From: Escherichia coli
GTDB taxonomy: Bacteria; Pseudomonadota; Gammaproteobacteria; Enterobacterales; Enterobacteriaceae
DNA length: 64,000 nt
Direction: 5' to 3' (one strand)
Assembly: GCF_016026235.1 (NCBI RefSeq)
Contig: NZ_CP065613.1
Part shown: positions 6,828 through 26,165 of the stretch, one piece after another
Layout: each line of letters opens with the position of its first letter
How positions within the stretch are numbered: position 1 is the first letter of the stretch
Notes under the pieces: model-generated
Told to the model about the DNA's origin: nothing
The model's input: the letters and a program-made list of their open reading frames with translations, nothing else
Databases searched by the model: none
Program-made: the position numbers and the translations under genes

Positions 6828-7832
6828 ATGAAATTTCTGGTTACGGGAGCTGCTGGCTTTATCGGTTTCTATATAAGTAAACGGCTTCTTGCAGCTGGTC
6901 ATCAGGTTGTAGGCATTGACAACTTAAATGATTATTACGATGTCAACCTCAAACAAACACGACTTGATTTACTCAAGCACGACAATTTCAGTTTTTATAA
7001 AATTGACCTGGCCGATCGCGAGAAAATGGCGGTACTGTTTGCAGACGAGCGGTTCGATCGCGTAATAAACCTCGCTGCGCAAGCCGGTGTACGTTACTCC
7101 CTTGAAAATCCCAATGCATATGCAGATGCAAACCTGATTGGATTCCTGAACGTACTGGAAGGATGTCGCCATAATAATGTTCAGCATCTACTCTACGCTT
7201 CCTCCAGTTCTGTTTATGGCATGAACCGCAAGATGCCTTTCTCTACAGATGACTCTGTAGATCATCCTGTTTCGCTTTATGCAGCAACTAAAAAAGCGAA
7301 TGAACTCATGGCCCATACCTATTCTCATTTGTATGGCTTACCGACCACAGGGCTGCGTTTCTTTACGGTTTATGGTCCATGGGGACGTCCGGATATGGCA
7401 CTATTTAAATTCACTAAAGCCATGCTGGAAGGTAAAAGCATTGATGTTTACAACTTCGGCAAAATGAAGCGTGATTTTACTTATATTGATGATATTGCCG
7501 AAACTATTATTCGCTTACAGGATGTTATTCCAGAAAAAGATCCACAGTGGGCTGTAGAAACAGGCTCGCCTGCAACAAGTTCAGCACCATATCGTGTCTA
7601 TAACATTGGTAATAGTTCGCCTGTAGAGTTGATGGACTATATCAATGCGTTAGAAGAGGCTCTGGGTATTGAAGCCAACAAAAATATGATGCCTCTCCAA
7701 CCCGGTGATGTACTGGAAACCAGTGCTGATACAAAAGCACTGTATGACGTAATAGGATTCAAACCCGAAACGTCAGTTAAAGAGGGGGTAAAGAACTTTG
7801 TAGAATGGTATCGTAACTTCTATAAAGTTTGA
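6828..7832 (+). CDS. gla: UDP-glucuronate 4-epimerase (NAD-dependent SDR)
   Basis: 334 aa; GAAGFIG Rossmann motif, YAATKKANE catalytic YxxxK; close resemblance to Gla/LpsL-type UDP-GlcA 4-epimerases as recalled. Confidence 0.85.
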   Translation: MKFLVTGAAGFIGFYISKRLLAAGHQVVGIDNLNDYYDVNLKQTRLDLLKHDNFSFYKIDLADREKMAVLFADERFDRVINLAAQAGVRYSLENPNAYADANLIGFLNVLEGCRHNNVQHLLYASSSSVYGMNRKMPFSTDDSVDHPVSLYAATKKANELMAHTYSHLYGLPTTGLRFFTVYGPWGRPDMALFKFTKAMLEGKSIDVYNFGKMKRDFTYIDDIAETIIRLQDVIPEKDPQWAVETGSPATSSAPYRVYNIGNSSPVELMDYINALEEALGIEANKNMMPLQPGDVLETSADTKALYDVIGFKPETSVKEGVKNFVEWYRNFYKV

Positions 7833-7897: not shown

Positions 7898-9064
7898 TTA
7901 ATCATTGCCAAACAAGTCGCGAGTATAAACTTTATCTGCTACATCAGCCAGATCGGCAGACATACGGTTAGAAATAATAACATCAGCTTCTTGTTTGAAT
8001 GCATCCAAATCACGTACCACGCGCGACCGGAAAAAATCGTCCTCTTTCATCGCTGGCTCATAAACGATTACAGGAACGCCTTTCGCCTTGATTCGCTTCA
8101 TAATACCCTGAATCGAGGAAGCACGAAAATTGTCTGAACCACTCTTCATAATCAAACGATAGACGCCAACAACTTTCGGTTTACGTGCAAGGATAGAATC
8201 GGCAATAAAGTCTTTTCGCGTGCGGTTGGCATCAACAATTGCCGAAATCAGATTATTCGGCACAGATTGATAGTTTGCCAGTAACTGCTTGGTATCTTTC
8301 GGCAGACAATAACCTCCATAACCAAATGACGGATTGTTGTAGTGATTACCGATACGCGGATCAAAGCAAACCCCCTCAATAATCTGGCGGGAATTAAGCC
8401 CCAGACTTTCAGCATAACTATCTAGTTCATTGAAATAAGCTACACGCATCGCCAGATAGGTGTTGGCAAAAAGTTTAATCGCCTCAGCTTCCGTTGAGTC
8501 AGTAAACAACGTTGGAATATCTTGCTTAATAGCACCTTCTTGTAATAATGCTGCAAAACGTTCAGCGCGTTCAGACTGCTCACCAATCACAATGCGTGAT
8601 GGATGCAAGTTATCATAAAGTGCTTTCCCTTCGCGTAAAAACTCCGGCGAAAAGATCACATTTTCAATACCAAATCGTTCTTTAATGGACTCTGTAAAAC
8701 CAACAGGGATAGTTGATTTTATAATCATTACAGCGTTGGGATTAATTTCTGTCACATCACGGATGACCGCTTCCACGCTTGAGGTATTAAAATAATTTGT
8801 TTTTGGGTCATAATCGGTAGGCGTGGCAATAATAACGTAATCGGCATTTTTATACGCGTCATACTTATCTGTCGTAGCGCGGAAATTGAGCTCTTTAGTC
8901 GCCAGATACTCTTCAATCTCCTTATCAACAATCGGTGACAGCTTCTTGTTAAGCATGTCCACTTTGGCCTGAACGATATCCAATGCCACCACTTCGTGAT
9001 TTTGCGCAATCAGAATACCATTTGAAAGACCAACATAACCTGTACCTGAAATTGTTATTTTCAT
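7898..9064 (-). CDS. ugd: UDP-glucose 6-dehydrogenase
   Basis: ORF 7898-9091; start placed at [16 protein letters not shown] (NAD-binding GxGxxG); 388 aa from that start. Confidence 0.93.
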
Positions 9065-9267
9065 TAGCTCTGACTTCTTCCGATTAAACATTTAGAGTGG
9101 TCATTAATCCACCACCATAACTTCATCTACTGCGGGATTTTTAACGCTGATGTAGATGAACAGTCAAGGCAGCGATCCTGCTGTGCGGCTCTGTATTATA
9201 TCTCTTTTTTAACCCAAAATTATAAAAAAAGTCCATAACCTGCCGCTTTGTATAATAAAAAAGCCCG

Positions 9268-9279: not shown

Positions 9280-10571
9280 TGAGGGATCCCCAGAAAATTT
9301 AGTAAACCATTATCATATTGGTATACCGTTGCTGTAGAACTTTCAGCCCTGCGTCAAGTGACAGTGTGTTTAGTATGAGTGGAGAATGTCGAATCACATT
9401 CTCCGCCAGTTTTAATAACGAGATGACTCGCCTGTGCTTCACTGTATTTGCCTGATATTTATGATGTATCCCTTTGTTTTCCAGGCTGAAACCGCTTAAC
9501 CACATAATGATACTGGCTAATGTTGCGATCAGACTCAATACCGTGACCCGCCCGGATGAATGACTGGCACCAAACCGTAGTCCAAATCCCCAGCGAGGAT
9601 TTTTTTCATCCCTGAAATTTTGCTCAATTTGCATTCTACGGCTGTATAATTTCATTACCTGTTTTGGCGAGAACTCAGTACTGTTTGTGAAAATAAACCA
9701 TGGTGATTTCCCGGCAGTACGAGCTTTAGCCGTCACCGATGGTCTGGTTGCTCTTTCCTTCGAGCGTTTAAATCTACGACCTTTAGGCTTACTTTTATAA
9801 AGATAAAAATGCCCTTCATGTTGTGCATTTTTATCTCGACCCAGCAGGCCTTCACCTAAATAAATTGCTGTCGTTGATGCTTTTGTGCCTGAGTCCGACA
9901 CCTTTTCCCAGCCATTACCAACATTGTAATAATGATTGCCCAGTACCCGGCAAATATAGGTCCAGCCACGGGAGCGGAGCTGTTGGAACCATCGCCCCTG
10001 AAAACCGGCATCTGTAATAACAATGACATCAGTCCCGGGGGAAAAGCACTCAGCAAGCGATTCCAGAAAACGCTCATGTACATCTGCATTCGCTGTCTGT
10101 GATGATGGAACGACACAACTCATCAACGGTAAAGAACGCCCGTCACATGCCAGGCTTGCCCGCAAAAGCTGAAAACGAGAGGCATGATAAGCACTCCAGT
10201 CAATGAGTATCACAACACGAGACATTCCCCGCGTAATCTTTTGGGTAATTCGCTGAAAAATGGTGGAAACCTCATTTTGCAAATGTCGATTCCCCAACAG
10301 TCGATCCACCCGCTTTATTTTGTTTTTAACTGATGCCGTACCGGTTAAATGACGCCCGATACTGGTAAGTGTGAGGGAAGCGCCATTTATTACAGCATTA
10401 GTTGCGTCAATCAGTGATTTTTGACGGTAAAGATGCAAAGGGGCCAGTATATTGTTAAGGAAATTTTGGCATAATGAACGTGCAGGCATAGTGGTGATCT
10501 CCTTGAAATTGTTAGCACAATCAATTAGATCACATCTCACTATGCCTGTCTTGTTTTCTGGGGATTCCTCA
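9280..10571 (-). mobile_element. IS4-family (IS10-like) insertion sequence, about 1.29 kb, apparently intact
   Basis: Terminal inverted repeats TGAGGGATCCCCAGAAAA (9280-9297) and TGAGGAATCCCCAGAAAA (reverse complement of 10554-10571), 17/18 match; single transposase ORF; flanked by 12-bp direct repeats. Confidence 0.85.
9299..10489 (-). CDS. DDE transposase, IS4 family (IS10-like)
   Basis: ORF 9299-10594 extends beyond the IS end, so start placed at internal MPARSL (10489) preceded by AAGGAG; motifs KIKRVDRLLGNRHL, ITDAGF, YSRRMQIEQNFRDEK, HKYQANTVKHRRV parallel the IS10 transposase as recalled. Confidence 0.85.
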   Translation of the reverse strand: MPARSLCQNFLNNILAPLHLYRQKSLIDATNAVINGASLTLTSIGRHLTGTASVKNKIKRVDRLLGNRHLQNEVSTIFQRITQKITRGMSRVVILIDWSAYHASRFQLLRASLACDGRSLPLMSCVVPSSQTANADVHERFLESLAECFSPGTDVIVITDAGFQGRWFQQLRSRGWTYICRVLGNHYYNVGNGWEKVSDSGTKASTTAIYLGEGLLGRDKNAQHEGHFYLYKSKPKGRRFKRSKERATRPSVTAKARTAGKSPWFIFTNSTEFSPKQVMKLYSRRMQIEQNFRDEKNPRWGFGLRFGASHSSGRVTVLSLIATLASIIMWLSGFSLENKGIHHKYQANTVKHRRVISLLKLAENVIRHSPLILNTLSLDAGLKVLQQRYTNMIMVY

Positions 10572-10583
10572 GAGGATTTCTCC
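10572..10583. repeat. Target-site duplication (right) of the IS element: GAGGATTTCTCC
   Basis: Identical to 9268-9279. Confidence 0.75.
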
Positions 10584-10616
10584 GGGGTTTGCATTGATTA
10601 GTTGATTTAAATCAGA

Positions 10617-12874: not shown

Positions 12875-13678
12875 TTATCTCCAAGAGGCAAAGTGGCGCT
12901 TAAAAAACAAACACAGCGGATTTATATGATGTTTGGCAACAGCATTAACAGCATAGTGGGAGAAATAATAAAGAGATTTAAACAGACCAAACTTTAAATA
13001 TTTCCTGTAAAAGGCCCATTGTGAAAATATTATTTTTAATTTATTTGACGAGAGTGTATCGGTGCCTACTCGATAATAGGCCAGTGTTTCGTTCAAACAA
13101 TATGCATAATCAATTTTATCTAAAATGCTCAGCCATAGTGCCATGTCCTGTCTTTTCCTGATTGTTGGCATAAACATTTTACCAAGAGATGAAGTATCAT
13201 ATACAGCTGTCAAGCAACCTATTACATTAGTCTTTAATAATTCAGAATAATTAACTTTAGAAACAGGATTAATTTGGGATAAAAGTTTCCCGCTAAAACT
13301 AACCTTTTGATATGAGGTATAAGTGAAAGCATAATTATTTGAAAGCATAAAGTCTATCTGTTTTTTTATTTTCTCTTTATGCCAAAAATCATCACTATCT
13401 AAAAAAGCGATAAACCGACCTTTAGCTTTACTGATCGCTATATTTCTTGACATACCAGCCCCATAATTCTTCTCATTTGAAATGAGAACAACTCTTGAAT
13501 CTTTTTTTTGATATTCCCTGCAAATAGACACTGTATTATCTGACGAACAATCATCGACAATAATCATTTCTATATTATTATATGATTGAGATAGAACAGA
13601 ATCAATTGTACATCTAATCGTTCTTTCAGAATTATATGTGGGTGTTATGACTGAAACTAAATATTTATCGGTACTCAT
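12875..13678 (-). CDS. Glycosyltransferase, family 2 (last gene of O-antigen cluster)
   Basis: 267 aa; ITPTYNSERTI ... VDDCSSD ... FLDSDD motifs typical of GT-A fold GT2 enzymes; AT-rich. Confidence 0.8.
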   Translation of the reverse strand: MSTDKYLVSVITPTYNSERTIRCTIDSVLSQSYNNIEMIIVDDCSSDNTVSICREYQKKDSRVVLISNEKNYGAGMSRNIAISKAKGRFIAFLDSDDFWHKEKIKKQIDFMLSNNYAFTYTSYQKVSFSGKLLSQINPVSKVNYSELLKTNVIGCLTAVYDTSSLGKMFMPTIRKRQDMALWLSILDKIDYAYCLNETLAYYRVGTDTLSSNKLKIIFSQWAFYRKYLKFGLFKSLYYFSHYAVNAVAKHHINPLCLFFKRHFASWR

Positions 13679-13837
13679 AGAATCATCTCAAACTTACATA
13701 AGTTTCATTATATAATGTCATGTTTATCATATCCATCCTTGGTAGCTTATTAAGAAATTTCACATATTAAATATTTATCAAGTATTTCATTAACATCCCA
13801 CCTTAATATAAAAAGCCGTTAATTAAGAGAGTAACTA

Positions 13838-13937
13838 CAAAGCAAAGCAAAGCAAAGCAAAGCAAAGCAAAGCAAAGCAAAGCAAAGCAAAGCAAAGCAA
13901 AGCAAAGCAAAGCAAAGCAAAGCAAAGCAAAGCAAAG
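13838..13937. repeat. Pentanucleotide microsatellite (GCAAA)x20 on + strand, (TTTGC)x20 in the operon direction
   Basis: Perfect tandem array visible at 13838-13937, between gne (ends 13989) and the GT2 gene (starts 13678). Confidence 0.95.
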
Positions 13938-13988
13938 ATGGTTTTATAAAAATATTGACAGTGAATAAAATAGCACATTAAAATCGTC

Positions 13989-15002
13989 TTATTTATATCC
14001 TTTGGGATTGTTTTTTTGCCAACGCCAAGAATCAATTATCATTGTATCTAAATCATATCGAGAAGACCACCCTAATTCTAAAAATGCTAGAGATGGATCA
14101 GACCAACATTCAGCTATATCACCAACTCGACGAGGTTTGAAACAATAAGGGATATCAATTCCAGTACAACGTTTAAAGGTATTTATCACATCAAGAACTG
14201 AATAACCAACCCCTGTACCAAGATTATATACTTTATAATTTCCCCCAAAATTACGGTGTTCTAAAGCAGCTATGTGCCCTTCAGCCAAATCCATAACATG
14301 AATATAATCTCTAATGCCTGTTCCATCAGGTGTAGGATAATCATTTCCGAATACTGATAAATATTTTAGATTACCAATAGCCACTTGAGTAATATAAGGA
14401 ATTAAATTATTTGGAACACCATTAGGATCTTCGCCTAATAGACCAGAAGAGTGGGCTCCTACAGGATTGAAATAACGCAAAATAGTAATACGCATTGTTG
14501 GCTCAGCCAAAGCTATATCCTTCAAAACCCTCTCTACTATAAGTTTTGAAAAGCCATATGGATTAGTTGTTCCGCCAACGCTACTATCTTCCTTCAAAGG
14601 AATAGTTTCAGGCTTACCATACACTGTTGCGGAGGAGCTAAAAATAAAACTAATAACGCCAGCGCGCATCATTTCTTCAAGTAAAACAATAGTTCCGTTA
14701 ACATTGTGATCATAATATTCCAATGGATTTGAAACAGATTCAGCGACGGCTTTTAATCCTGCAAAATGAATAACATCTGTAATATCATGATACTGGAAAA
14801 TATGTTTGAGTTTTTTCCTATCACGCACATCACCATGATAAAATAGAGGCCTACGTCCACAAATTTTTTCGACCCTTTCTAACGACTTAGACGATGAGTT
14901 CGATAGATTATCCAACACCACCACATTTTTTCCGTATGATAATAAGGATAATACAGTATGTGAACCAATGTAACCTGCACCACCAGTAACCAAAATAGTC
15001 AT
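13989..15002 (-). CDS. gne: UDP-hexose 4-epimerase, GalE family (probably UDP-GlcNAc 4-epimerase Gne)
   Basis: 337 aa; LVTGGAGYIGSH ... HFAGLKAVAESV ... YxxxK context; GalE-family SDR inside an O-antigen cluster. Substrate (UDP-Glc versus UDP-GlcNAc) cannot be decided from sequence by eye. Confidence 0.8.
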   Translation of the reverse strand: MTILVTGGAGYIGSHTVLSLLSYGKNVVVLDNLSNSSSKSLERVEKICGRRPLFYHGDVRDRKKLKHIFQYHDITDVIHFAGLKAVAESVSNPLEYYDHNVNGTIVLLEEMMRAGVISFIFSSSATVYGKPETIPLKEDSSVGGTTNPYGFSKLIVERVLKDIALAEPTMRITILRYFNPVGAHSSGLLGEDPNGVPNNLIPYITQVAIGNLKYLSVFGNDYPTPDGTGIRDYIHVMDLAEGHIAALEHRNFGGNYKVYNLGTGVGYSVLDVINTFKRCTGIDIPYCFKPRRVGDIAECWSDPSLAFLELGWSSRYDLDTMIIDSWRWQKNNPKGYK

Positions 15003-15348
15003 AAAACTCCTTATATTTCATCTATCTGCCTAGGATATAAAACAAGAATATAAACACATTATAAATAGTATAAACTGTGAAAGAATAAAAATTTAGAATA
15101 GTTAAGCCCAATGTTACTATAAAAATACAATATGCAAGTATACGTTATTTTTCTAAACATCTCGACATATTGTATGAGTCTAACACTATATTGCATTTTT
15201 TTCGTGTAAATTATGTTCTAGTGGTGTCAGTAATTCGAGCAATTTATGAGGCCTTTTATTCTTGTACAGTATGCAATATTGAGCCTGTTTATGATTGACA
15301 TATTCAGATTTTCAAAGAGCAATTCTTCATTAAACTCAATAAACGGCT

Positions 15349-15634
15349 ATCTCAGTGATCGGTTAAAGCGCTCACAGATGGTGTTCATTTTCGGCGTATC
15401 GAGATAAGCCTATTGGTGCCTGATAGCGGCTTCCTGTAGCTTTTTGTCAAATTTTCCCAGGAACTCTTCCCCATAATCGGGTATATTCTGGTTGATTCCA
15501 ACAGGTAACAACCGAGCTTGATGGCAGAAGAAACTCATGATTACATCACTGTTAAGCGACGTTACCGCCACCGCCAAAGCGTAGTTGCTGCGTTCGTCAA
15601 TCACGGTAATAACATAACGCCGATTCTGAGCTCA
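15349..15634 (-). pseudogene. Remnant of an rve-type (integrase-core DDE) transposase gene, frameshifted and truncated
   Basis: Minus-strand frames give ...RRYVITVIDERSNYALAVAV... (VIDxxSR-like first catalytic-D region) and, in another frame, ...PKMNTICERFNRSLR* (xERFNRxL C-terminal integrase-core motif); local G+C looks higher than the surrounding cluster. Confidence 0.45.
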
Positions 15635-15944
15635 ATATAAGCTCACCGGTCTTTAGCGGGCTAATAGTACCTTGGACTTGAAGTCTGGGAACCCAGTTAC
15701 ACCAGTATTAGCCACATTTTATCATGTGCTGCCTAGCTCATTCCTCCAATAGTGGAGACGCTCGGGCAGGCCAAATGCTACTGTTCACACTACAGATTCA
15801 GACGGTCAAAAATCTGTTCTTTTCCAAGGTTGAGAAGTCCTATTCTAATTCATCATATTTCTTTCAAAATTTCTGGATGTCATAGTTTTGTAAGACATAC
15901 TAGAAAGATTTACTACTTGAGATAAGCACTTCCGAGCCTATATA

Positions 15945-16307
15945 TTAAACGCGTATTGATACACAAAAATTTTCTGCGGATGCATTGATTCCATGTCTTT
16001 CCCTAAAATGCAGGGTTTTCATTCTTAATTTTGCAATATCAGGCATGGCATTGTATTCCATCGCATAGATTGTTGCACGGTAATGCCCGAAACACCTGAC
16101 GCCGATATGTTGGTTCAACATAACAATCTCTCCTTTCTTATCTGGAGACAATTGCAACATCTCTGAAAACTTACACTCTGCCCATCGTGTACATAACCAA
16201 AGACAACAGAAATATGTCACGCCTTTTTCCAAATTCCAATTTATATTCCTTACTCTTATAACACAAGGAGTATCTGAATATATAAGAGTGAAGGAGTGCT
16301 TTGGCAA
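15945..16307 (-). CDS. Hypothetical protein or gene fragment of unknown function
   Basis: 120-aa ORF in the decayed segment between gne and wzy; no recognisable motifs; may be a remnant. Confidence 0.25.
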   Translation of the reverse strand: MPKHSFTLIYSDTPCVIRVRNINWNLEKGVTYFCCLWLCTRWAECKFSEMLQLSPDKKGEIVMLNQHIGVRCFGHYRATIYAMEYNAMPDIAKLRMKTLHFRERHGINASAENFCVSIRV

Positions 16308-16752
16308 AAATATTTAATTCAAAGATATAAAACACAATCGATTTAGTATCAAAAGATTACTCAGTAATCTTTCACCAAATAAATTAGTTCAAAATAACAC
16401 TACAGCAATGGCAATAAAACCATTCCATGAAATAGCAACATAAACACGCAAATAGAATTTCCACGTAAATTTATAACACTTACCAATCCAAAACATTATT
16501 TATTATAGATTGTATTCATGGGATTATCACCTGGTTCAGTTATAGATTTGTGATCTATGTAGTTCACTATTCTTACAGTTCTCAAAAAACTTAAATTAAA
16601 TTGTTGCGCTATTACCCTATAGTCTTTAAATACCCATAAAAACAAAGGCAAAAACCAATTTGTTTTACAGATATCTAGAATAAGATAATATGTCAACAAT
16701 TAACAAGTTACTACTATTGTTTGTTAATAAAAACCTGCAATTAAAATAATAA

Positions 16753-18015
16753 TCATGCATTAACCGAACCCCTTCTTATTAATCTTTTTTTATGACAAAT
16801 ATAAAAAGATGAAAATATATATATATATATTATTTTCATATATGCAACATTCAAAAATATAACCTCGCCTTTATAATGAAAAGAAAAACTGAGTATCGTA
16901 ATCATTAATACAACTATTTTAGGTTTGATGCTATTAGCAGCATAAATAGTCAAAAAAATAAAAAATAAAAAATAAAAAATAACCGATGGTACCGCACCCA
17001 AAAATAATGCTAACCGCATAAATCCAGCATCGGTCCCGAGATAATATGTCCCATCCTTTAACGTATAGTACCCATCACCAATGAAGATCTGTTTTTCTGT
17101 TAACGGAAAATACATATTAAATAATGCATCTGTAGATGTTGTTGATAACTTTCCTGAATCTAAATAATAATATAACATTTGAAAAGAATAATCCGAATAT
17201 TTTTTCAAGATATCATAAACATGTTCATTTAAAAAAAATCTCCAAAAAATAAATAAAAACAGAGATACATAAATCAAAATTTGAAGCGCCCGATAAAACT
17301 TCTTTTTATAATCAGAGCAAATAAAACTATATACCCCTCCGAGGACAAACCCCAAAACAGCCGTACGCCCAGCAGAAATTGACGCGAACAGCAAGAGTAT
17401 GATAAAAAATAATTTAAAAAAGAAAGGAATATTACAGTCTTCCTCATTAAACCAAACAATTGAAAGAAAAGATAATAATGACATAATTATAGCAAGACCA
17501 AAGGCAACAGAACCTGATATACCTAATCCCCTGATGCCTCCATATGTATTACTCATAAATTCTATTTCTTCTTTTGTTCTAATAATACTTTGAATATAAG
17601 CATTTATACTGGGAAAAAACATCATCAGAATAATAAAAAAGGATTGTAAGAGGGCAATTAGAAAAAACAATTTCAACACATTATCATTGTTATGCTGGAT
17701 TAAGTGCGACGCAATTATAACAGAGCTGAATAATGCAGCGAAATTATTAAAGATAACCCCCATGATAGATAAATCTCCTGTACCATTTAATACCAATGAA
17801 ATACAAGAAAAAAAGAGCATGCAGGCCAAAGACAAAAACGCAATAAAAAATATTCTTGTACTTATTAGACTAAAAAAAACAGTCCTTATCCTGATATTTG
17901 TAATTAAATAAATCAAGGAGAAAATATATATAAGATAGCCTGAATTAAAAAAAACAGGGATGCTAAAAGCAAACACAAATAAAAACAACAAAAATACATC
18001 AAAAAAAACCTTCAT
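16753..18015 (-). CDS. wzy: O-antigen polymerase
   Basis: 420 aa, highly hydrophobic multi-TM protein with a larger hydrophilic loop, adjacent to glycosyltransferases and wzx; identity as Wzy is by elimination (the other polytopic protein has the Wzx pattern). Confidence 0.7.
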   Translation of the reverse strand: MKVFFDVFLLFLFVFAFSIPVFFNSGYLIYIFSLIYLITNIRIRTVFFSLISTRIFFIAFLSLACMLFFSCISLVLNGTGDLSIMGVIFNNFAALFSSVIIASHLIQHNNDNVLKLFFLIALLQSFFIILMMFFPSINAYIQSIIRTKEEIEFMSNTYGGIRGLGISGSVAFGLAIIMSLLSFLSIVWFNEEDCNIPFFFKLFFIILLLFASISAGRTAVLGFVLGGVYSFICSDYKKKFYRALQILIYVSLFLFIFWRFFLNEHVYDILKKYSDYSFQMLYYYLDSGKLSTTSTDALFNMYFPLTEKQIFIGDGYYTLKDGTYYLGTDAGFMRLALFLGAVPSVIFYFLFFIFLTIYAANSIKPKIVVLMITILSFSFHYKGEVIFLNVAYMKIIYIYIFSSFYICHKKRLIRRGSVNA

Positions 18016-19127
18016 AAAAATTCCTTTTGTGACACGACCCGATAATAAATATCAACCATACGCTTTGTGTTTTTATTTATATCAAACATTTTTATTATTG
18101 TATCTCGGTTATATTCAATCGAACACCTATATTGATTACTATCTATTAATTTCACACACCTTGAAAAAACAGATTTCATGTCAATATCATCATGCAGATT
18201 CAAATACATTGCATGATTTCCTAATAGCTCTCTGTTTGCATCGATGTCTGATACTATCGGAAAACAATTACATAAAACGCCCTCCATTAAAGATAATGGA
18301 GCACCATCATTGCTAGGAATACTAAGAACAAAATCAGATTTATGAAGAATCGACCTTAATTCCTCTTTTTGAATAAACCCTATTAAATTTACTTTATAAT
18401 TATCTCCCTCACATTTTTTTGTGAGTTCTATTATCTTATCATGTGTGGTCTTTGACGATGAGCGGCCTAGTATATTGATATTAAAAAAGTACCCTTTACA
18501 ATCATAATCTTTCATATCAATAACAGCTTCTAAAAAGGACTCTATGTTATAAATATTATCCCAATTTCTTACAGAAGTTATTGTTATACATTTATCGTCC
18601 CTTATGCTTGACGTTTTTTCATCTGAAAAGAACCCCACATCTACACCATATTGAAAAGTATGTATTCGCTCCTGATTCACATTGAAATACGATATTATTT
18701 TATTTGTTATATGCTTGGCGGGTGAATTTACAACACAAAAACTTTTCATTGCTTTTACATATATTTTTCCTAATATCCCTCTCTTTTTTATAGTATTGTT
18801 AATGTCACTTCCCCATACTGAGAGTATCTTCTTTACTTTTCTAGGCAAAACACATGAAATTAAACCATAAGAACTAAAAAAATGGACATGAACCAACTCA
18901 GGCTTTAATAAAAAAAAATAAAAAAGAAGAAAAACAGGTGCGTATATAAAATCAAATTTAGTTTTTGTAAGTCTTGGTATCTTATATATCTCTCCTATTC
19001 CAACATTCTCAGAAATACTTTTGTCATAGTGTAGTGTGACAATTCTATAATCAATATATTCTTTGGAACCATGAATCCAGTTACTAATATGACCAGATAT
19101 CATAGGGCCAAAAACAAGTACTCTCAT
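18012..19127 (-). CDS. Glycosyltransferase, GT-B fold (GT4 / family 1 type)
   Basis: 371 aa; C-terminal E-x7-E-like region ...LSLMEGVLCNCFPIVSD...; overlaps neighbours by 4 bp. Confidence 0.75.
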   Translation of the reverse strand: MRVLVFGPMISGHISNWIHGSKEYIDYRIVTLHYDKSISENVGIGEIYKIPRLTKTKFDFIYAPVFLLFYFFLLKPELVHVHFFSSYGLISCVLPRKVKKILSVWGSDINNTIKKRGILGKIYVKAMKSFCVVNSPAKHITNKIISYFNVNQERIHTFQYGVDVGFFSDEKTSSIRDDKCITITSVRNWDNIYNIESFLEAVIDMKDYDCKGYFFNINILGRSSSKTTHDKIIELTKKCEGDNYKVNLIGFIQKEELRSILHKSDFVLSIPSNDGAPLSLMEGVLCNCFPIVSDIDANRELLGNHAMYLNLHDDIDMKSVFSRCVKLIDSNQYRCSIEYNRDTIIKMFDINKNTKRMVDIYYRVVSQKEFL

Positions 19128-20017
19128 TTTTTCCCCATTCGTTTTCTTAAATTTAAATAATAATTTTTAGCATGGAGTGGAGACAACCACCCAATACATT
19201 TCCCCACAATATTGTGCTTGATTTTTATTGATTCAATGACAGAGAATAAAAAAAACTCAACTGAAAAGTTGGTTGCATTAAATAAATGAATAGGTGCAAC
19301 TTCATTTTTTCTGAAAAATTTAGATAAAATAGTCTTGTTTTTTATTTGGATAAACTTCTTACAACTGCCAATTGAGCCATGCCTTATCCTATAAAATAAA
19401 ACCACGTCATCTATATTCCTTACAATACATCCACTCAATACAGCCCTACACAAAAAATCATAATCTTGAGCAGCATCTAAACGCCTGTAACCACCTAATT
19501 TATAATAAAGCTCTGACCTTAACAACCAAGTTGGATGAATTATTTCATTCCCCCACGAAAAATCTACTGGGTTCATATTAAAATAATCCCTAACAACATT
19601 ATCGTTCTCATCAATAACAACAGCCTGTCCACCGACTAAACTGACATCAGAATGCTTATTCAGATATTCTAATTGCTTTTTAAAACGCCCGTTAATAACA
19701 ATATCATCAGCATCCATTCTGGCAATAAAATCATAGCCATTACACGCGCCAAAAATTAATTTATTTAAACTTGCCGCCAACCCTTCGTTCTCATTAAAAA
19801 AAACAACGCACACATCATTTCTGGCACTAACTTCTTTTAAATATAAACTCTCAACATGAGGAATATCTTCATTTCTCCTATCGACTCCAATTATTAATTT
19901 ATATTTCACATTCTTCTTTTCCAATCTTTCCAGATCCTGAAGAGTACTGTCTACTGCCTTTTTTAGTATTATGTAACTCTCATTATAGTAAGTCATGATT
20001 ACAGCAAGTTTTTGCAT
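19124..20017 (-). CDS. Glycosyltransferase, family 2
   Basis: ORF 19124-20143; start placed at internal MQKLAVIMTYYNE (typical GT2 N-terminus); DAD/DxD-like motif RMDADD. Confidence 0.75.
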   Translation of the reverse strand: MQKLAVIMTYYNESYIILKKAVDSTLQDLERLEKKNVKYKLIIGVDRRNEDIPHVESLYLKEVSARNDVCVVFFNENEGLAASLNKLIFGACNGYDFIARMDADDIVINGRFKKQLEYLNKHSDVSLVGGQAVVIDENDNVVRDYFNMNPVDFSWGNEIIHPTWLLRSELYYKLGGYRRLDAAQDYDFLCRAVLSGCIVRNIDDVVLFYRIRHGSIGSCKKFIQIKNKTILSKFFRKNEVAPIHLFNATNFSVEFFLFSVIESIKIKHNIVGKCIGWLSPLHAKNYYLNLRKRMGKK

Positions 20018-21204
20018 TTCAAATCCCACAGACAACAAATTGTAATAATAATTGGCGATAGAACTACAGCATATACTATATAATAATATGGGAATAATGA
20101 AGAAAATAAAAAAATAGATATTAACGATAATACATTCGAACAAATCACATATTTTACTATATTTTTTGATGAGTGTATCATATGAATTAATTGAGTTAAA
20201 TATTGATTGAGTATACTTGGGATAACAGCTAGGCTAAATGAAAATATTAGAAAAATAAAAAAACGAGATATTTCTCCCTTTGTCAAATAAATAGAGATAT
20301 ATGATATTGCAGCCACACATATAAAAACAACGATGCTGTAAAACAACAATTTGAGTAGCTGACTTCTGTATTTTACTTCCACATAGTTAGTTTTGTGCCC
20401 TACGGAATAAAAAACCTCTGAATTACATTTATTTAAGACAGTGATAATTGAATTGGAAAATGTTACGGATACTGTCACAAATCGCATAACGACGTTATAT
20501 ATCCCTAACAAGCTAGCATTTCCTGATGCCAATATAGCAGAATTAATTATAGGCTGAATAAGTGCATTTACCCCGCTATATATGTACATATGCTTAATGT
20601 TTTTCAAATAATTTTTAATGTGTCTAAATGATATTTTTCCCAACCTATTATCATTCTTTATTTTTATCAAACTAATAAGTCCAACCAGAGCAGATGCTAT
20701 CGCCTGAATAAAAATAAACATGTGTAATTCAAAAGCATAATATAAAACAAATAAAACCGCTAAAATTTTAACTACCAAGGACACTATTATTATAAACCTA
20801 AAGTTATCCTTTGCTATATAGTACCAACTATTAAGCATGCCAAATCCAAACGAGAATATTACGACACAAAAATAATCACTCTTCCCTGCAGTCTCTGAAA
20901 TTATAATAAACACCATCGCACATACAAAAAAAAACACTAACTTAAAGAAAATCGCTGAAATAACAAACGACTGCTGAGCAATTTCATTACCCTTAAGCTT
21001 ATTTAATTGTTGTACGCCTACTGTATTTAGACAAGCATCATAAATAAATGAAATAAAAGTTGATATAGTTAACACATACGAATAAACTCCATATCCCTCT
21101 AAATTAAATCTAGTTAAAACCAGCGGCATAATTATTATTGGGACAATATAATCCACTAGCTTTAGAGCACTTACAGAGATAATACTTCTTAAAAAACTAG
21201 ACAT
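19999..21204 (-). CDS. wzx: O-antigen flippase
   Basis: 401 aa, about 12 predicted TM segments, polysaccharide-transporter-family N-terminus. Confidence 0.75.
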   Translation of the reverse strand: MSSFLRSIISVSALKLVDYIVPIIIMPLVLTRFNLEGYGVYSYVLTISTFISFIYDACLNTVGVQQLNKLKGNEIAQQSFVISAIFFKLVFFFVCAMVFIIISETAGKSDYFCVVIFSFGFGMLNSWYYIAKDNFRFIIIVSLVVKILAVLFVLYYAFELHMFIFIQAIASALVGLISLIKIKNDNRLGKISFRHIKNYLKNIKHMYIYSGVNALIQPIINSAILASGNASLLGIYNVVMRFVTVSVTFSNSIITVLNKCNSEVFYSVGHKTNYVEVKYRSQLLKLLFYSIVVFICVAAISYISIYLTKGEISRFFIFLIFSFSLAVIPSILNQYLTQLIHMIHSSKNIVKYVICSNVLSLISIFLFSSLFPYYYIVYAVVLSPIIITICCLWDLKCKNLL

Positions 21205-21643
21205 CTTTTATTTTTCTAGCCGGTTGCCCAACATATACACCTGGTTCCTCTAAGTTTTTTGTAACTATCGCTCCGGCACCAACAATAATATTACTACAGA
21301 TCTCCACTCCCGGTAAAACAATTGCTCCAGCACCTAACTGAACATTATCTTTTATTACTACCTTATCTTTTTTATATTTAAAGATTTTCTTTTCAAATAC
21401 CAAACCTGTACTGAGAATTTTACTACCAGCAGACAGTACTACATTATGGCCTAAAATGACTCCTCCACTAGCATTTATATACACAAAATCATTAATTGAA
21501 AAGGAATTACCGAATTTAAGATTCGATGGTTCTACTATCTTATAAGGACCATAAATATGGGATTGCTTATAACGTTTTACTCCAAACTCACAGATAAAAC
21601 ATAATTTATACCATATTAATTGAATTCTAGAGAATATGCTCAT
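21197..21643 (-). CDS. Hexapeptide-repeat O-acetyltransferase
   Basis: 148 aa; left-handed beta-helix hexapeptide repeats (GHNVVLSAGSKI... GAGAIVLPGVEI... GAGAIVTKNL). Confidence 0.8.
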   Translation of the reverse strand: MSIFSRIQLIWYKLCFICEFGVKRYKQSHIYGPYKIVEPSNLKFGNSFSINDFVYINASGGVILGHNVVLSAGSKILSTGLVFEKKIFKYKKDKVVIKDNVQLGAGAIVLPGVEICSNIIVGAGAIVTKNLEEPGVYVGQPARKIKDV

Positions 21644-22557
21644 AGCTTTAACTCCTTTCCGAGCCTTTCATCCCATTCAAATGGAGTTATCTTATCATAC
21701 CCCGATCCTTGATGAAATGTTAATTCGCCTACATATATTTTTTCTTGAACAAGATATAAATCAACCCTAAGATATTTGAAACCTTGACTTAGTTTTTTAG
21801 ATATATTTAGAGCGTTTTCTAACTGACTTGGTTTACTAATATTCTTCACATTAAATTTTGAAAGATCTTTTCCCCTTCTCGCCCAGCAAAAATCTAACAT
21901 ATTCCAACTAGTATCATATATAGAACGATAATTCCCTCCCTCACGATCTAACGACACATAAATAAATTTCGGTTCTCCATTAAAACAATGAATTTTTATA
22001 TCATTAGGAACTTTCCCTGCCTCATCCTCTAATAACCTTTCAACAATTATACGCCTATCAATATTTTTATATTGCCATTCTCTTCCGTGATGGTAAATAT
22101 TACAATTAAGTGTTCTAATAAATTTCCACTTAACCTCATCAATATTCAATAAATTCTTGTCTCTAACAATAAAATAATCGCCACAATAGTGGTTCGATTT
22201 TATAACAAACTTACCCTGTGGTAAAGACTCAAAGGTAATATCAAAAGGGGTATCATAAACCTTTAACAAATCAATTATATTATCTCTCGTTCCCAGCCTA
22301 TTTTCCACATATTCTCGCACTCTAATTTTATCAGCACATATTGTATGTAATAGTGTTCTGTCATTTAGTTTCAACCATTGTAACTTTTGATTTAATGTCT
22401 TCGGATTGTTCAATCCGAGAGGGTATCCCTGATATTCAAGAAACTGCTTTTTTATAATCAAGCTATCTGGAGTAATCAGAACGACAAAGCATTTCAATAA
22501 ATACTTTATATTATACAATATATACATCAATTTCATGGAAAGATTTTTTCTATTCAT
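21640..22557 (-). CDS. TupA-like ATP-grasp protein (predicted amide ligase acting on a sugar carboxylate)
   Basis: 305 aa; NPKTLNQKLQWLKL motif and overall layout recalled as characteristic of the TupA-like ATP-grasp family. Confidence 0.65.
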   Translation of the reverse strand: MNRKNLSMKLMYILYNIKYLLKCFVVLITPDSLIIKKQFLEYQGYPLGLNNPKTLNQKLQWLKLNDRTLLHTICADKIRVREYVENRLGTRDNIIDLLKVYDTPFDITFESLPQGKFVIKSNHYCGDYFIVRDKNLLNIDEVKWKFIRTLNCNIYHHGREWQYKNIDRRIIVERLLEDEAGKVPNDIKIHCFNGEPKFIYVSLDREGGNYRSIYDTSWNMLDFCWARRGKDLSKFNVKNISKPSQLENALNISKKLSQGFKYLRVDLYLVQEKIYVGELTFHQGSGYDKITPFEWDERLGKELKL

Positions 22558-23237
22558 ATTAGAATCTCAAATAATTTATGCTGTCTTACCCATTCTCTTG
22601 CCTGACCTTTCGATACTACTACCCCAACGTTGCTCATTTTTAATATTGGTAAATCGCTAATAGAATCAGAGTAAGTTGTTATATGATACTCAGAAACATC
22701 TAACGACAAAACACCTTTTAACATTAATACTTTATTATATCCCATGCAATTCTTGCCACTAATTCTCCCTAAACACCTGCCTCTATTATCAAATTTAATT
22801 TTTGTGCATACAAAGCCATTAATCTCTAATGCTTTAACTAAATATTGAATATAAATATCATAGCCTCCAGAAATAATAATAACCTCATCTCCATCTTTTA
22901 AATGCTTATTCAATATCTTAATTATGGCAGGATTAATTCTGCGCAATATAATTTCATTAACGTAATCACGAGCCATTACATTAAGAATATCCCTTTCAAT
23001 ATTTTTTAACATATACAATAAAATTCTTTTCCTTAAGCTTTCCCCCAATCTTATTTTATTTATTATTTGTTCGATTTTGAAAATGGATAATGAAGATGCC
23101 ACCCTATTTAAAGTCTGTATTTTGATGTTATTACATATCCCCAAACGATCTATTACATAGTATATAAACCCATCGCCAGTTTGAAAATCAACTAAGGTTT
23201 CACACAGATCAAATAATGCTATCTTTTTTAACTTCAT
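22554..23237 (-). CDS. HAD-superfamily phosphatase (subfamily IB-like)
   Basis: 227 aa; N-terminal motif I variant FDLCETL, ISGG, C-terminal YSDSISDLP acidic motif. Confidence 0.7.
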   Translation of the reverse strand: MKLKKIALFDLCETLVDFQTGDGFIYYVIDRLGICNNIKIQTLNRVASSLSIFKIEQIINKIRLGESLRKRILLYMLKNIERDILNVMARDYVNEIILRRINPAIIKILNKHLKDGDEVIIISGGYDIYIQYLVKALEINGFVCTKIKFDNRGRCLGRISGKNCMGYNKVLMLKGVLSLDVSEYHITTYSDSISDLPILKMSNVGVVVSKGQAREWVRQHKLFEILI

Positions 23238-24315
23238 ACATCTGCTCTAAAATTCTGATTACATACAACATTTGTTTTTTCGTTCCAATAGTAATTCTGA
23301 CACATAACTCGACCTCTTTCATATGAGATAAATCACGAACAAATATTAAATTAGATTTTAAACGTTCAATGAATGCTTTTTTATCATTCATCGATTTAAA
23401 CTCAATAACCAAAAAGTTCCCCTCTCCATATACAATATTTTTTTGACCTATATTTATATTTTTCAACTTATCATAAAAAAAACGCTTAGCCTGATTAACT
23501 TCCTTAACATAATTATTCATATATTCAACTTCGTCTAATGCATTCAAAGCGGCAATCTGACTTAGCTGAGGTATATTTTTTGCATTTCTGACTTTATTTA
23601 TTGCACCTAACAAATCTTGTGACGCTATTATATATCCCATTCGCATCCCTGCCAATGAAAATGCTTTGGAAAATGTTCGCGTAATAATTATGTTATTAAA
23701 GGAGTTTACAAAATCAGCACACGTTAATTTTGCAAATTCATAATAGGCTTCATCGATAATAAAATATATTCCTTTATATTTTTCTACAAGATAATGTATA
23801 TCTCCTTTAGGAATAAGAGTACCTGTAGGATTATTTGGGTTACATAAATAGGCCATTTGAGGTTGAAACTTATTGAGATCGCTTTCAAACTTCTTTAATG
23901 ACCAATAGTAATTATCTTCAAAAATTGAATAACAAATTGTTGCCCCTTGAGCTTCACCTGTTGTTCTGAAATTATCATACGTAGGTGCTAACATCAATAT
24001 TTTATCATTTTCATTAATTAATGTACGAATGATAGACTCGTGTGCTGAGTCTGAACTACAAAAATATTGGATATATTCCTTTGGCACCCCCACATAGTTT
24101 GATATCTTTATTATTAAATCTTTATTGCTCACATCTGGATAATACCTAATTAGATTATTTACCAACGAATTCATTAATGCATTTTTTACTCTTTCTGGCG
24201 GTTCAATAGTAGATTCGTTCCAATCTAATTTTAATATTGTTTCTTTATTTTCACTCTCCCATATAGCGTGGGATGCAAGTTTATATGGTTTCATTTTTTT
24301 TACGAACTTATTCAA
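23209..24315 (-). CDS. HisC-family PLP-dependent enzyme (aminotransferase or decarboxylase acting on a phosphorylated substrate); first gene of the O-antigen operon
   Basis: 368 aa; motif-for-motif parallel with the hisC in this window (CNPNNPTG vs CSPNNPTG; IDEAYYEF vs ADEAYIEF; TRTFSKAFSLAGMRMGY vs [16 protein letters not shown]; VRITIGT vs LRITVGT) but highly diverged and AT-rich. Confidence 0.8.
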   Translation of the reverse strand: MNKFVKKMKPYKLASHAIWESENKETILKLDWNESTIEPPERVKNALMNSLVNNLIRYYPDVSNKDLIIKISNYVGVPKEYIQYFCSSDSAHESIIRTLINENDKILMLAPTYDNFRTTGEAQGATICYSIFEDNYYWSLKKFESDLNKFQPQMAYLCNPNNPTGTLIPKGDIHYLVEKYKGIYFIIDEAYYEFAKLTCADFVNSFNNIIITRTFSKAFSLAGMRMGYIIASQDLLGAINKVRNAKNIPQLSQIAALNALDEVEYMNNYVKEVNQAKRFFYDKLKNINIGQKNIVYGEGNFLVIEFKSMNDKKAFIERLKSNLIFVRDLSHMKEVELCVRITIGTKKQMLYVIRILEQMYEVKKDSII

Positions 24316-24800
24316 TTTTTACTCCATTACGTTCTGTGCATAACATTTAAAGAATTTAAACATGCTCAAGAAAACACAATATCTTATCTTAGATAATTTT
24401 CAGAATTGCTCCTATGTTTCATAATTCGTATATAAGCCCATACATTTATTTTATTCTTAATATAATCTCGTGAAGAATAATCGACATATTGTGTCAAAAA
24501 AAATATATATCTATTCCACATACTGAATATCTTCACTAACTTCTGCAAATTGAGAGCATAAGTAATCAGACACAGAATATTCAATATATTATACTTTCCA
24601 TGCTTGTCTGTAGTCAGAAATATAGAGACACCTTATTAAATCTTTAAGTTTTATCTTACTCTTTTTGTATATATACTGAGTATTTGGACATTTATAATAT
24701 ATAAAATAATAGCGTTTGATGTTAAGGAAAATCTCCATTATTGAATATTTATCGCCAATTGTTTAGTAAAAAATCAGTGCCACATGTTTTCTCTTATATG

Positions 24801-24839
24801 CACGCTACCGCCCCTGGCTTTACAGCTACCAGAGCACTG
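24801..24839 (-). promoter_or_regulatory. 39-bp JUMPStart element with ops (GGCGGTAGCGTG) antitermination site upstream of the O-antigen operon
   Basis: + strand reads cacgctaccgcccctggctttacagctaccagagcactg, the reverse complement of the JUMPStart consensus as recalled; ops 12-mer at 24801-24812. Confidence 0.85.
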
Positions 24840-25097
24840 CATGCATGCCTACGATGTGACGAGCGTTACCCACTCGCGCTAAACCCGAAAAATTCAAACG
24901 CTAATTGTCTTACCAATCCGCTCTGGAAACAAGGAAAATCCTGGAAAACTTTGACGAAAATCCTATTGCTAACTCTTTGTTATTCTGATTGTTTATATAA
25001 AACAACGGCAGGAATATTCGCAACAAATTACCTTCGCCGCAAATCTTCACAGCCGTTATAATTTTCTTATCAACCGTTACATCCGGTCAGATTTTCA

Positions 25098-25991
25098 TTA
25101 TTCGCTTAACAGCTTCTCAATACCTTTACGGAACTTCGCCCCTTCTTTTAGGTTACGCAGTCCATACTTCACAAACGCCTGCATATAGCCCATTTTTTTA
25201 CCGCAGTCGTAGCTGTGACCTGTCATCAGCATGGCATCAACGGACTGTTTTTTCGCCAATTCGGCAATGGCATCAGTCAGCTGAATACGCCCCCATGCAC
25301 CTGGCTGAGTGCGTTCAAGTTCCGGCCAAATATCGGCAGAAAGCACATAGCGACCAACGGCCATGATGTCTGAGTCCAGCGTCTGCGGCTGATCCGGTTT
25401 TTCGATAAATTCGCCGATGCGGCTGACTTTACCTTCACGATCCAGTGGTTCTTTGGTCTGAATGACGGAGTATTCAGAGAGGTCACCCGGCATACGTTTT
25501 GCCAGCACCTGGCTGCGGCCCGTTTCGTTGAAGCGCGCAATCATGGCAGCAAGGTTGTAGCGTAGCGGATCGGCGCTGGCGTCATCGATAACAACGTCTG
25601 GCAGTACCACGACAAATGGATTGTCACCAATGGCAGGTCGTGCACATAAAATGGAGTGGCCCAAACCTAAAGGTTCGCCCTGACGCACGTTCATAATAGT
25701 CACGCCCGGCGGGCAAATGGACTGTACTTCCGCCAGCAGTTGACGCTTCACGCGCTGCTCAAGGAGAGATTCTAATTCATAAGAGGTGTCGAAGTGGTTT
25801 TCGACCGCGTTCTTGGACGCGTGAGTTACCAGGAGGATTTCTTTGATCCCTGCAGCCACAATCTCGTCAACAATGTACTGAATCATTGGCTTATCGACGA
25901 TCGGTAGCATCTCTTTGGGAATCGCCTTAGTGGCAGGCAACATATGCATCCCAAGACCCGCTACAGGAATAACTGCTTTTAAATTCGTCAT
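25098..25991 (-). CDS. galF: UTP-glucose-1-phosphate uridylyltransferase paralogue (regulatory subunit)
   Basis: ORF 25098-26003; start placed at [30 protein letters not shown]. Confidence 0.93.
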
Positions 25992-26165
25992 TATTTCATC
26001 CACCTGTAAAATGGTTGCTGAATTATAGCTTGTTCGATTTTTTTCGCCAGCATCAATTACCCTGAATTGATTACTGAATTACTTATGATGTTACGCCGCT
26101 TCGTTGTGGATTGCAGTAGCATTGTTCCTAAGTATGGCTCCATTTTTCCAGGAATGGTCGCAAAT

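Follow-up and report, generated by a model that had tools for sequence, protein, structure and literature searches.

A three-gene module at the head of the O-antigen operon in a 64,000-nucleotide (nt) stretch of Escherichia coli DNA (assembly GCF_016026235.1, contig NZ_CP065613.1; this whole stretch is called the window) is predicted to place amide-linked serinol (2-amino-1,3-propanediol) on a uronic acid of the O143 O-antigen, and a probability of about 0.85 is given to this reading. The module consists of a HisC-like aminotransferase, a stand-alone HAD phosphatase and an adjoining ATP-grasp ligase, and is unrelated to histidine synthesis. What was observed directly is homology to characterised capsule enzymes of Campylobacter jejuni, the clade into which the aminotransferase falls, conserved motifs, linkage of the genes and their place in the operon. 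At the level of sequence comparison, the module belonged with the C. jejuni serinol-amide pathway and fell outside HisC, CobD and both kinds of histidinol-phosphatase. The O143 trio is a previously uncharacterised member of this known system, carried in RefSeq under the generic names 'pyridoxal phosphate-dependent aminotransferase', 'HAD family hydrolase' and 'ATP-grasp fold amidoligase family protein'.

The reference pathway is that of the C. jejuni HS:2 capsule. According to a report from the Raushel laboratory (PMC11800397), (S)-serinol phosphate arises from dihydroxyacetone phosphate through the transaminase Cj1437, and ethanolamine phosphate from L-serine phosphate through the decarboxylase Cj1436. 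With serinol phosphate and adenosine triphosphate (ATP), the ATP-grasp domain at the C-terminus of Cj1438 (Cj1438C) amidates the C6 carboxylate of in-chain glucuronate, and the HAD phosphatase Cj1435 strips the phosphate from the Cj1438C product. A second report by the same group describes the same logic in C. jejuni HS:19, with HS19.10, HS19.11C and HS19.09 as the equivalents (PMC13276843). For the comparisons made here, the Cj1438C and Cj1435 sequences were taken from the supplement of the HS:2 paper, and those of Cj1437 and Cj1436 from a C. jejuni contig (L002).

The three enzymes and their relatives

The aminotransferase gene (23209-24315, minus strand, TTG start) encodes a fold-type-I, pyridoxal phosphate (PLP)-dependent enzyme of the HisC family, 368 amino acids (aa) in length (Pfam PF00155, Aminotran_1_2, 2.8e-47). 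The protein shared 39% identity with Cj1437 over 360 aa (E 2e-83, with residues 2-7 also aligning), 28% with the HisC encoded by its own genome over 312 aa (E 5e-36) and 23% with the decarboxylase Cj1436 (E 7e-17). The hisC equivalog TIGR01141 was its best-scoring NCBIfam model, and the score of 262.4 bits lay 14 bits below the cut-off of 276.55; Cj1437 and four members of its clade scored 246.8 to 270.5 bits on the same model, all under that threshold. On the CobD model TIGR01140 the protein obtained 142 bits (2.3e-41) against a cut-off of 290.55, and membership fails. Its top matches in the Protein Data Bank (PDB) were all HisC.

A neighbour-joining tree (Kimura distances, 347 trimmed columns, 69 sequences, 100 bootstraps, Cj1436 as outgroup) was built from the 368-aa protein, Cj1437, 30 database homologues, the HisC of the same genome and 35 HisC representatives sharing less than 50% mutual identity. 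The 368-aa protein, Cj1437 and the 30 homologues were monophyletic in 99 of the 100 bootstraps, while the 36 HisC representatives formed a separate group (83/100) and Cj1436 stayed outside the serinol-phosphate clade. On average the 368-aa protein was 46% identical to members of its own clade, as against 25% for the HisC set. The Cj1437 clade and HisC could be told apart at thirteen alignment columns, including those with A36, I88, G111-M112-Y113 and Y243-P244 in HisC, where the 368-aa protein has W32, H92, D114-N115-F116 and K246-N247. The clade residue was found at all 13 in the 368-aa protein and at 10 of the 13 in Cj1437.

Residues K217, D188, Y191, N162, S216, R225, R327 and R340 aligned with K214, D184, Y187, N157, S213, R222, R322 and R335 of HisC. 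As the PLP lysine, the PLP-binding residues and the phosphate arginines are common to the whole branch, they do not discriminate between HisC and Cj1437; the kept lysine and both substrate-phosphate arginines nevertheless fit a phosphorylated keto substrate. By orthology to Cj1437, the 368-aa protein is predicted to be a dihydroxyacetone-phosphate:L-glutamate transaminase making (S)-serinol phosphate.

A first-pass annotation of the window had already pointed to a HisC-family gene beside a stand-alone HAD gene at these positions in the O-antigen cluster, and both were borne out as exact open reading frames (ORFs) with Pfam matches; RefSeq calls the same two ORFs. It had also described the O-antigen copies as AT-rich, which agrees with a G+C content of 29-31% across 16-25 kb of the window against 54-58% in the his operon. 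Its statement that the likeness to hisC was at motif level only understated the relationship, given 28% identity over 312 aa, and its view that the gene is not a recent duplication of hisC was upheld at a divergence far too large for one. A recent duplication was ruled out by this identity together with the 25-point difference in G+C. That HisC-like chemistry was recruited independently to make a glycan substituent, as likewise proposed there, agrees with the placement in the Cj1437 clade and with the polysaccharide-locus setting, and the O-antigen aminotransferase is supported as an old paralogue of hisC serving such a substituent. The tree had been suggested as a check, with clustering among bona fide HisC proteins as the contrary outcome; the protein grouped instead with Cj1437.

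The risk of mis-annotation as hisC that was raised at the same time is real, with a score only 14 bits under the cut-off and JGI names that use HisC: all 10 JGI-named homologues among the best 120 were called 'histidinol-phosphate aminotransferase'. Current RefSeq avoids the error through its generic PLP-dependent aminotransferase name. The gene offers a concrete example of a HisC-like sequence that just misses the hisC equivalog cut-off and to which some pipelines still give the wrong name.

The adjoining ligase gene, which lies beyond the coordinates considered in the first-pass annotation and belongs to the same module, is the key to the function of the aminotransferase-HAD pair. It encodes a TupA-like ATP-grasp amidoligase of 305 aa (21640-22557, minus strand; Pfam PF14305, 2.2e-45), with a match of 155.5 bits against a cut-off of 25 that covered 240 of the 241 model positions. 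Identity to Cj1438C was 35% (E 2e-46), and as its presumed orthologue the enzyme is predicted to couple serinol phosphate to a uronic acid, at the C6 carboxylate, once this sugar is part of the O-unit. A 2019 review of E. coli O-antigens states that O52, O143 and O167 each have one extra glycosyltransferase without obvious explanation, and lists amide-linked L-alanine in O167 (PMC7685785). Only three Pfam-supported glycosyltransferases were found in the window, and NCBI records give the name 'glycosyl transferase' to homologues of the ATP-grasp ligase; speculatively, the 'extra' glycosyltransferase of O143 may be this ligase.

The phosphatase gene (22554-23237, minus strand) encodes a stand-alone HAD-IB protein of 227 aa (Pfam PF12710, 1.9e-20) that scored 70.4 bits on the HAD-IB model TIGR01488 (cut-off 45). 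Its motif I reads D10-L-C12-E-T14. Canonical HAD phosphatases carry the general acid/base Asp two residues after the nucleophile; the 227-aa protein has Cys, not Asp, at this position, as does Cj1435. In an alignment of seven HAD proteins (the 227-aa protein, Cj1435 and five from other loci, of which four are encoded next to an aminotransferase gene and one is fused to an aminotransferase), HAD motifs I-IV were all present, and D10, C12, T14, Q19, S123, K169, D191 and D195 were invariant. The D-x-C-x-T motif followed by FQT was present in all seven, and in 30 of 30 database homologues (P0391-P0420). Cj1435, which shares the motif, is experimentally active as a phosphatase (PMC11800397). The 227-aa protein is predicted to be its orthologue and, as such, to remove phosphate from the glycan-bound serinol-phosphate amide.

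The parallel with the phosphatase domain of HisB that the first-pass annotation implied did not survive. BLASTP gave no significant alignment between the 227-aa protein and the HisB of the same genome (best E 0.31), and the HisB-N models TIGR01261 and TIGR01662 (HAD-IIIA) gave no match. A relationship to HisB-N was ruled out on these grounds, the two proteins lacking similarity and belonging to HAD-IB and HAD-IIIA, respectively. On the HAD-IB histidinol-phosphatase models of the Pseudomonas and Neisseria types, scores were 57.3 bits against a cut-off of 280 (NF052360) and 56.2 against 400 (NF052359); these weak matches are generic HAD-IB resemblance only.

Linkage in polysaccharide loci, proposed pathway and alternatives

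The contigs encoding six relatives of the aminotransferase were examined, and all six proved to be polysaccharide loci. The aminotransferase-HAD pair was kept in 6 of 6, and a TupA-type ATP-grasp ligase occurred with it in 5 of 6; a carboxylate-activating ligase accompanied the pair in every locus. The order aminotransferase-HAD-ATP-grasp was found in Gallaecimonas pentaromativorans (L004), Vibrio alginolyticus (L006) and a metagenome contig (L007). In C. jejuni (L002) the order was Cj1438 (C-terminal part)-Cj1437-Cj1436-Cj1435, that is ligase-aminotransferase-decarboxylase-HAD, with Cj1435 at L002:3786-4421. A Logan assembly of a sequencing run (L005:1454-5282) carried a GT2+ATP-grasp fusion followed by an aminotransferase+HAD fusion, and another metagenome contig (L008:4523-7747) a CapK-like AMP-binding ligase followed by aminotransferase-HAD, with no TupA ATP-grasp present in that locus. 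The latter locus possibly represents a variant in which a different, adenylate-forming enzyme activates the carboxylate.

The two fusion proteins of the Logan assembly were 650 aa (GT2 with TupA ATP-grasp, as in Cj1438) and 627 aa (aminotransferase with HAD, P0117) long; downstream of them came two radical-SAM genes and one for a methyltransferase.

Substrates, order of steps and the undecaprenyl-linked timing are taken over from C. jejuni in the pathway proposed for O143. The aminotransferase would convert dihydroxyacetone phosphate and L-glutamate to (S)-serinol phosphate, as expected of a Cj1437 orthologue, while glycosyltransferases would assemble an undecaprenyl-diphosphate-linked O-unit from the uridine diphosphate (UDP) derivatives of glucuronic acid (GlcA) and galacturonic acid (GalA), supplied by ugd and the adjacent epimerase. 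The ATP-grasp ligase, by orthology to Cj1438C, would use ATP to activate C6 of the uronate as an acyl-phosphate and couple it to the amine of serinol phosphate. After ligation the HAD-IB phosphatase, as a presumed Cj1435 orthologue, would take the phosphate off the glycan-bound amide. The acyltransferase would O-acetylate the O-unit, which Wzx would flip and Wzy polymerise. The module itself was presumably acquired by horizontal transfer within an AT-rich polysaccharide cluster. The first-pass annotation had proposed an aminotransferase-then-phosphatase sequence; removal of the phosphate by the HAD enzyme at a later stage is retained here, but the immediate succession of the two steps is probably wrong, since the homologous ligase takes serinol phosphate first.

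The O143 repeat unit, which is the same as that of Shigella boydii type 8, was reportedly described by Landersjo and colleagues in 1996 as a tetrasaccharide of N-acetylglucosamine, GlcA, N-acetylgalactosamine and terminal GalA. The GalA is reportedly amidated with 2-amino-1,3-propanediol and O-acetylated. If right, this structure would account for every named gene, and the ligase would tell GalA from GlcA.

Several points weigh against the serinol-amide assignment. The 227-aa HAD protein reached 96.8 bits on TIGR01490, 1.5 under the cut-off of 98.3, where Cj1435 scores 209, and its identity to Cj1435 was only about 25%, though over the full length (E 4e-18). All listed active-site residues of HisC are kept in the aminotransferase, including the equivalents of Tyr110 and Asp85, so that a residual histidinol-phosphate activity is compatible with the sequence. 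The HisC set of the tree was drawn from the top matches to E. coli HisC, leaving out CobD and the HisC proteins of Gram-positive bacteria and Thermotoga. The O143 repeat-unit structure was not found in a literature search, nor did that search find a paper connecting serinol biosynthesis to O143 or S. boydii 8. O143 is a Wzx/Wzy O-antigen and the C. jejuni polymer an ABC-transporter capsule, which makes it an extrapolation to carry over the rule that the ligase acts before the phosphatase. Finally, the acceptor sugar is reportedly GalA in O143, against GlcA in C. jejuni, and the specificity of the ligase must accordingly differ between the two.

Among other explanations, the one that fares best, though it is improbable, has the HAD enzyme dephosphorylate serinol phosphate at once and the ligase couple free serinol, in the order proposed by the first-pass annotation and in line with the serinol formation of RtxA. 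It would agree with aminotransferase and HAD genes that adjoin, overlap and in one locus are fused, and with the one locus where the pair occurs apart from a TupA-type ligase (L008), and RtxA is reported to yield free serinol from dihydroxyacetone phosphate (PMC3222319). Both characterised C. jejuni ligases, however, use (S)-serinol phosphate, and the HAD enzyme acts on the ligase product (PMC11800397, PMC13276843); free serinol was moreover reported to be probably toxic to E. coli (PMC3222319).

Less probable still is an ethanolamine amide, for which the O143 enzyme would be a CobD- or Cj1436-like decarboxylase turning L-serine phosphate into ethanolamine phosphate. The superfamily is the same, the CobD model gives a match of 2.3e-41, and C. 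jejuni uses both amines (PMC11800397). The protein is nonetheless 23% identical to Cj1436 against 39% to Cj1437, Cj1436 lies outside the clade, the TIGR01140 score is far from its cut-off (142 bits against 290.55) and the cluster has a single PLP enzyme. A decarboxylase function was ruled out by the TIGR01140 score and the low identity to Cj1436. It is just as unlikely that the same module handles another amine, the clade transaminating some other phosphorylated ketone to give a different amino-alcohol substituent: an identity to Cj1437 of 39% is not high and Cj1437 departs from the rest of the clade at three of the discriminating columns, but membership in the clade is tight, the phosphate-binding arginines are kept, and the serinol amide reported for O143 is an exact fit to the preferred reading. 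Least probable of all is a true second histidinol-phosphate aminotransferase/phosphatase pair, for redundant histidine synthesis or a histidinol substituent, which could draw on hisC being the top NCBIfam model (262.4 bits), on PDB matches that are all HisC, on the kept HisC active-site residues and on the weak HAD-IB histidinol-phosphatase matches, but which is opposed by a score under the hisC cut-off, by the separation of the aminotransferase from the HisC group in 99 of 100 bootstraps, by HAD scores of 57 and 56 bits where 280 and 400 are required, by the setting in polysaccharide loci beside an amidoligase and by the intact hisC and hisB of the genome.

With amide-linked serinol as the preferred product, specific functions can be predicted from sequence for three generically annotated genes of the O-antigen cluster of enteroinvasive E. 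coli O143. The Campylobacter serinol-amide pathway would then also take in a Wzx/Wzy O-antigen and, probably, GalA, providing a second system in which to study the sugar specificity of the ligase and to attempt chemoenzymatic synthesis of the O143 and S. boydii 8 antigens. Current understanding is not overturned, and the result will not surprise a specialist. As a more tentative proposal, the HAD enzymes of Cj1435 and O143 type might form a distinct HAD-IB subfamily with an invariant D-x-C-x-T motif, specialised for glycan-bound amino-alcohol phosphates, and the aminotransferase-HAD pair might be a portable cassette serving different ligases, mostly of the TupA ATP-grasp type but in at least one locus a CapK-like adenylate-forming enzyme. 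The subfamily might also be distinct in mechanism. If true, adding an amino-alcohol phosphate and then trimming it would be a general and largely unrecognised way of decorating polysaccharides in Proteobacteria and other phyla.

The O143 cluster and its surroundings

The window comprises the his operon (hisC, hisB through hisIE), wzz, a short-chain dehydrogenase/reductase (SDR) epimerase gene, ugd, an IS4-family transposase gene, gnd, the O-antigen block, galF (25098-26003, minus strand), which flanks that block, and colanic-acid genes. The O-antigen block, at about 12.8-24.3 kb, is AT-rich, has all of its genes on the minus strand and lies between galF and gnd. Over its 13 kb it matched four E. 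coli chromosomes in RefSeq at 99.5-99.6% identity; wzx and wzy are named 'O143 family' there, and the cluster types as O143, as both the flippase/polymerase match and the galF-gnd location fit. In a sensitive search of 5426 complete E. coli genomes, the aminotransferase-HAD-ligase trio was found in four, all of O143 type.

An element whose sequence is cagtgctctggtagctgtaaagccaggggcggtagcgtg, which we take to be JUMPStart, lies upstream of the aminotransferase gene (24801-24839, minus strand) and contains the ops motif GGCGGTAG at 24805-24812 on the same strand. GGAG occurs 8 nt before the TTG start of the aminotransferase gene. JUMPStart with ops upstream and GGAG before the TTG indicate that the O-antigen operon begins with the aminotransferase gene. 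Its first four genes (aminotransferase, HAD, ATP-grasp ligase and acyltransferase) overlap by 29, 4 and 4 nt.

Further exact GGCGGTAG motifs were located at 36300, 49059, 49646 (minus) and 60452 (plus). The total of five in the window compares with 1.2 expected, and only 1 of 100 shuffles reached five; some of the four extra motifs may belong to colanic-acid or neighbouring operons. Between galF and the aminotransferase gene, the intergenic DNA, within which JUMPStart lies (24527-25000), shared about 80-83% identity with thousands of other E. coli genomes, and the feature annotated there under the matches is an 'ISAs1 family transposase'.

The fourth gene of the operon (21197-21643, minus strand) encodes a hexapeptide-repeat acyltransferase of 148 aa (Pfam Hexapep, 1.2e-09, with WcaF-family and WbbJ-like matches), probably an O-acetyltransferase of the O-unit. 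An acyltransferase with 59% identity occupies the equivalent place after the ligase in Gallaecimonas. The whole O143 cluster (12875-24315) was in fact collinear with that of Gallaecimonas pentaromativorans (GCA_001247655.1, L004:8001-17086), in the order aminotransferase, HAD, ATP-grasp, acyltransferase, wzx, GT2, GT4, wzy, GT2 and ugd. Protein identities between the two clusters ranged from 35 to 68%, with 35% for wzx and 44% for wzy. This collinearity points to repeat units that are the same or closely alike, and to an old transfer between genera.

Precursors of the uronic acid to be amidated would come from genes outside the block. The ugd gene (7898-9091, minus strand; RefSeq annotation) encodes UDP-glucose 6-dehydrogenase, for UDP-GlcA supply. 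The NAD-dependent SDR epimerase (6828-7832, plus strand; Pfam Epimerase, 1.1e-56) is probably a UDP-glucuronate 4-epimerase supplying UDP-GalA. It gave no match to an NCBIfam equivalog, and its best PDB matches after a near-identical structural-genomics entry were the 6zl6/6zla group (9.6e-44), which we take to be the UDP-GlcA 4-epimerase of Bacillus cereus.

The housekeeping genes used as comparators lie outside the module, on the plus strand. They are hisC (409-1479; TIGR01141, 422.7 bits, cut-off 276.55) and the bifunctional hisB (1476-2546; NF003937, 646.8 bits, cut-off 443), whose N-terminal domain is a HAD-IIIA histidinol-phosphatase (TIGR01261, 278.2 bits; TIGR01662, 90.7 bits). The equivalog models bear out the first-pass identification of an authentic hisC and of a hisB with a HAD N-terminal domain, at about 21 kb from the O-antigen pair.

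Insertion-sequence (IS) features were also seen. An intact IS4-family transposase gene (9299-10594, 431 aa; NF033591, 360 bits) separates ugd from gnd. The O143 strain STLEFF_47 in RefSeq lacks it, with only about 250 bp from ugd to gnd. Within the O-antigen cluster, the 1.75 kb from a galE-like gene to wzy (15003-16752) held no ORF longer than 120 aa. The counterpart of this region in a RefSeq O143 strain is a frameshifted 'integrase core domain' pseudogene, so the region is a decayed IS remnant. The wzy gene is intact here (420 aa) and is annotated as frameshifted in STLEFF_47.

Comparison with known systems

The O143 aminotransferase resembles HisC in its fold, in the PLP lysine, in two phosphate-binding arginines and in a 2-keto-1-phosphate substrate logic, dihydroxyacetone phosphate being for Cj1437 such a substrate as imidazole-acetol phosphate is for HisC. 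In both routes phosphate is removed later by an enzyme of the HAD superfamily. The aminotransferase differs from HisC by its 28% identity, its separate clade and the 13 discriminating positions, among them A36W, I88H, G111D/M112N/Y113F and Y243K. The O143 phosphatase is a HAD-IB protein with Cys at Asp+2 and the HisB domain a HAD-IIIA one, with similarity undetectable, and a ligation step would come between transamination and dephosphorylation, unlike in the histidine route.

CobD, Cj1436 and the serine-phosphate decarboxylases fall in the same branch (HisC/CobD) of the class I/II aminotransferases and act on phosphorylated three- or four-carbon amino compounds. CobD (L-threonine-O-3-phosphate decarboxylase) and Cj1436 are, however, decarboxylases and not transaminases. 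RtxA's N-terminal domain, from rhizobitoxine synthesis in Bradyrhizobium elkanii, likewise yields serinol phosphate or serinol from dihydroxyacetone phosphate, preferring glutamate as donor (PMC3222319). This domain belongs to a bifunctional toxin-synthesis enzyme of 90 kDa, and the free serinol serves a small molecule rather than a glycan amide.

Like the C. jejuni capsule pathway, the O143 module combines a transaminase of HisC type, an ATP-grasp ligase of TupA type and a D-x-C-x-T HAD-IB phosphatase, and in both cases the three genes lie together in a surface-polysaccharide locus that also encodes a UDP-glucose dehydrogenase. The O143 ligase stands alone, whereas that of C. jejuni is fused behind a GT2 glycosyltransferase, and the gene order is aminotransferase-HAD-ligase in O143 against ligase-aminotransferase-decarboxylase-HAD in C. 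jejuni. Unlike the latter, the O143 cluster has no Cj1436-type decarboxylase, and only one amine is therefore expected.

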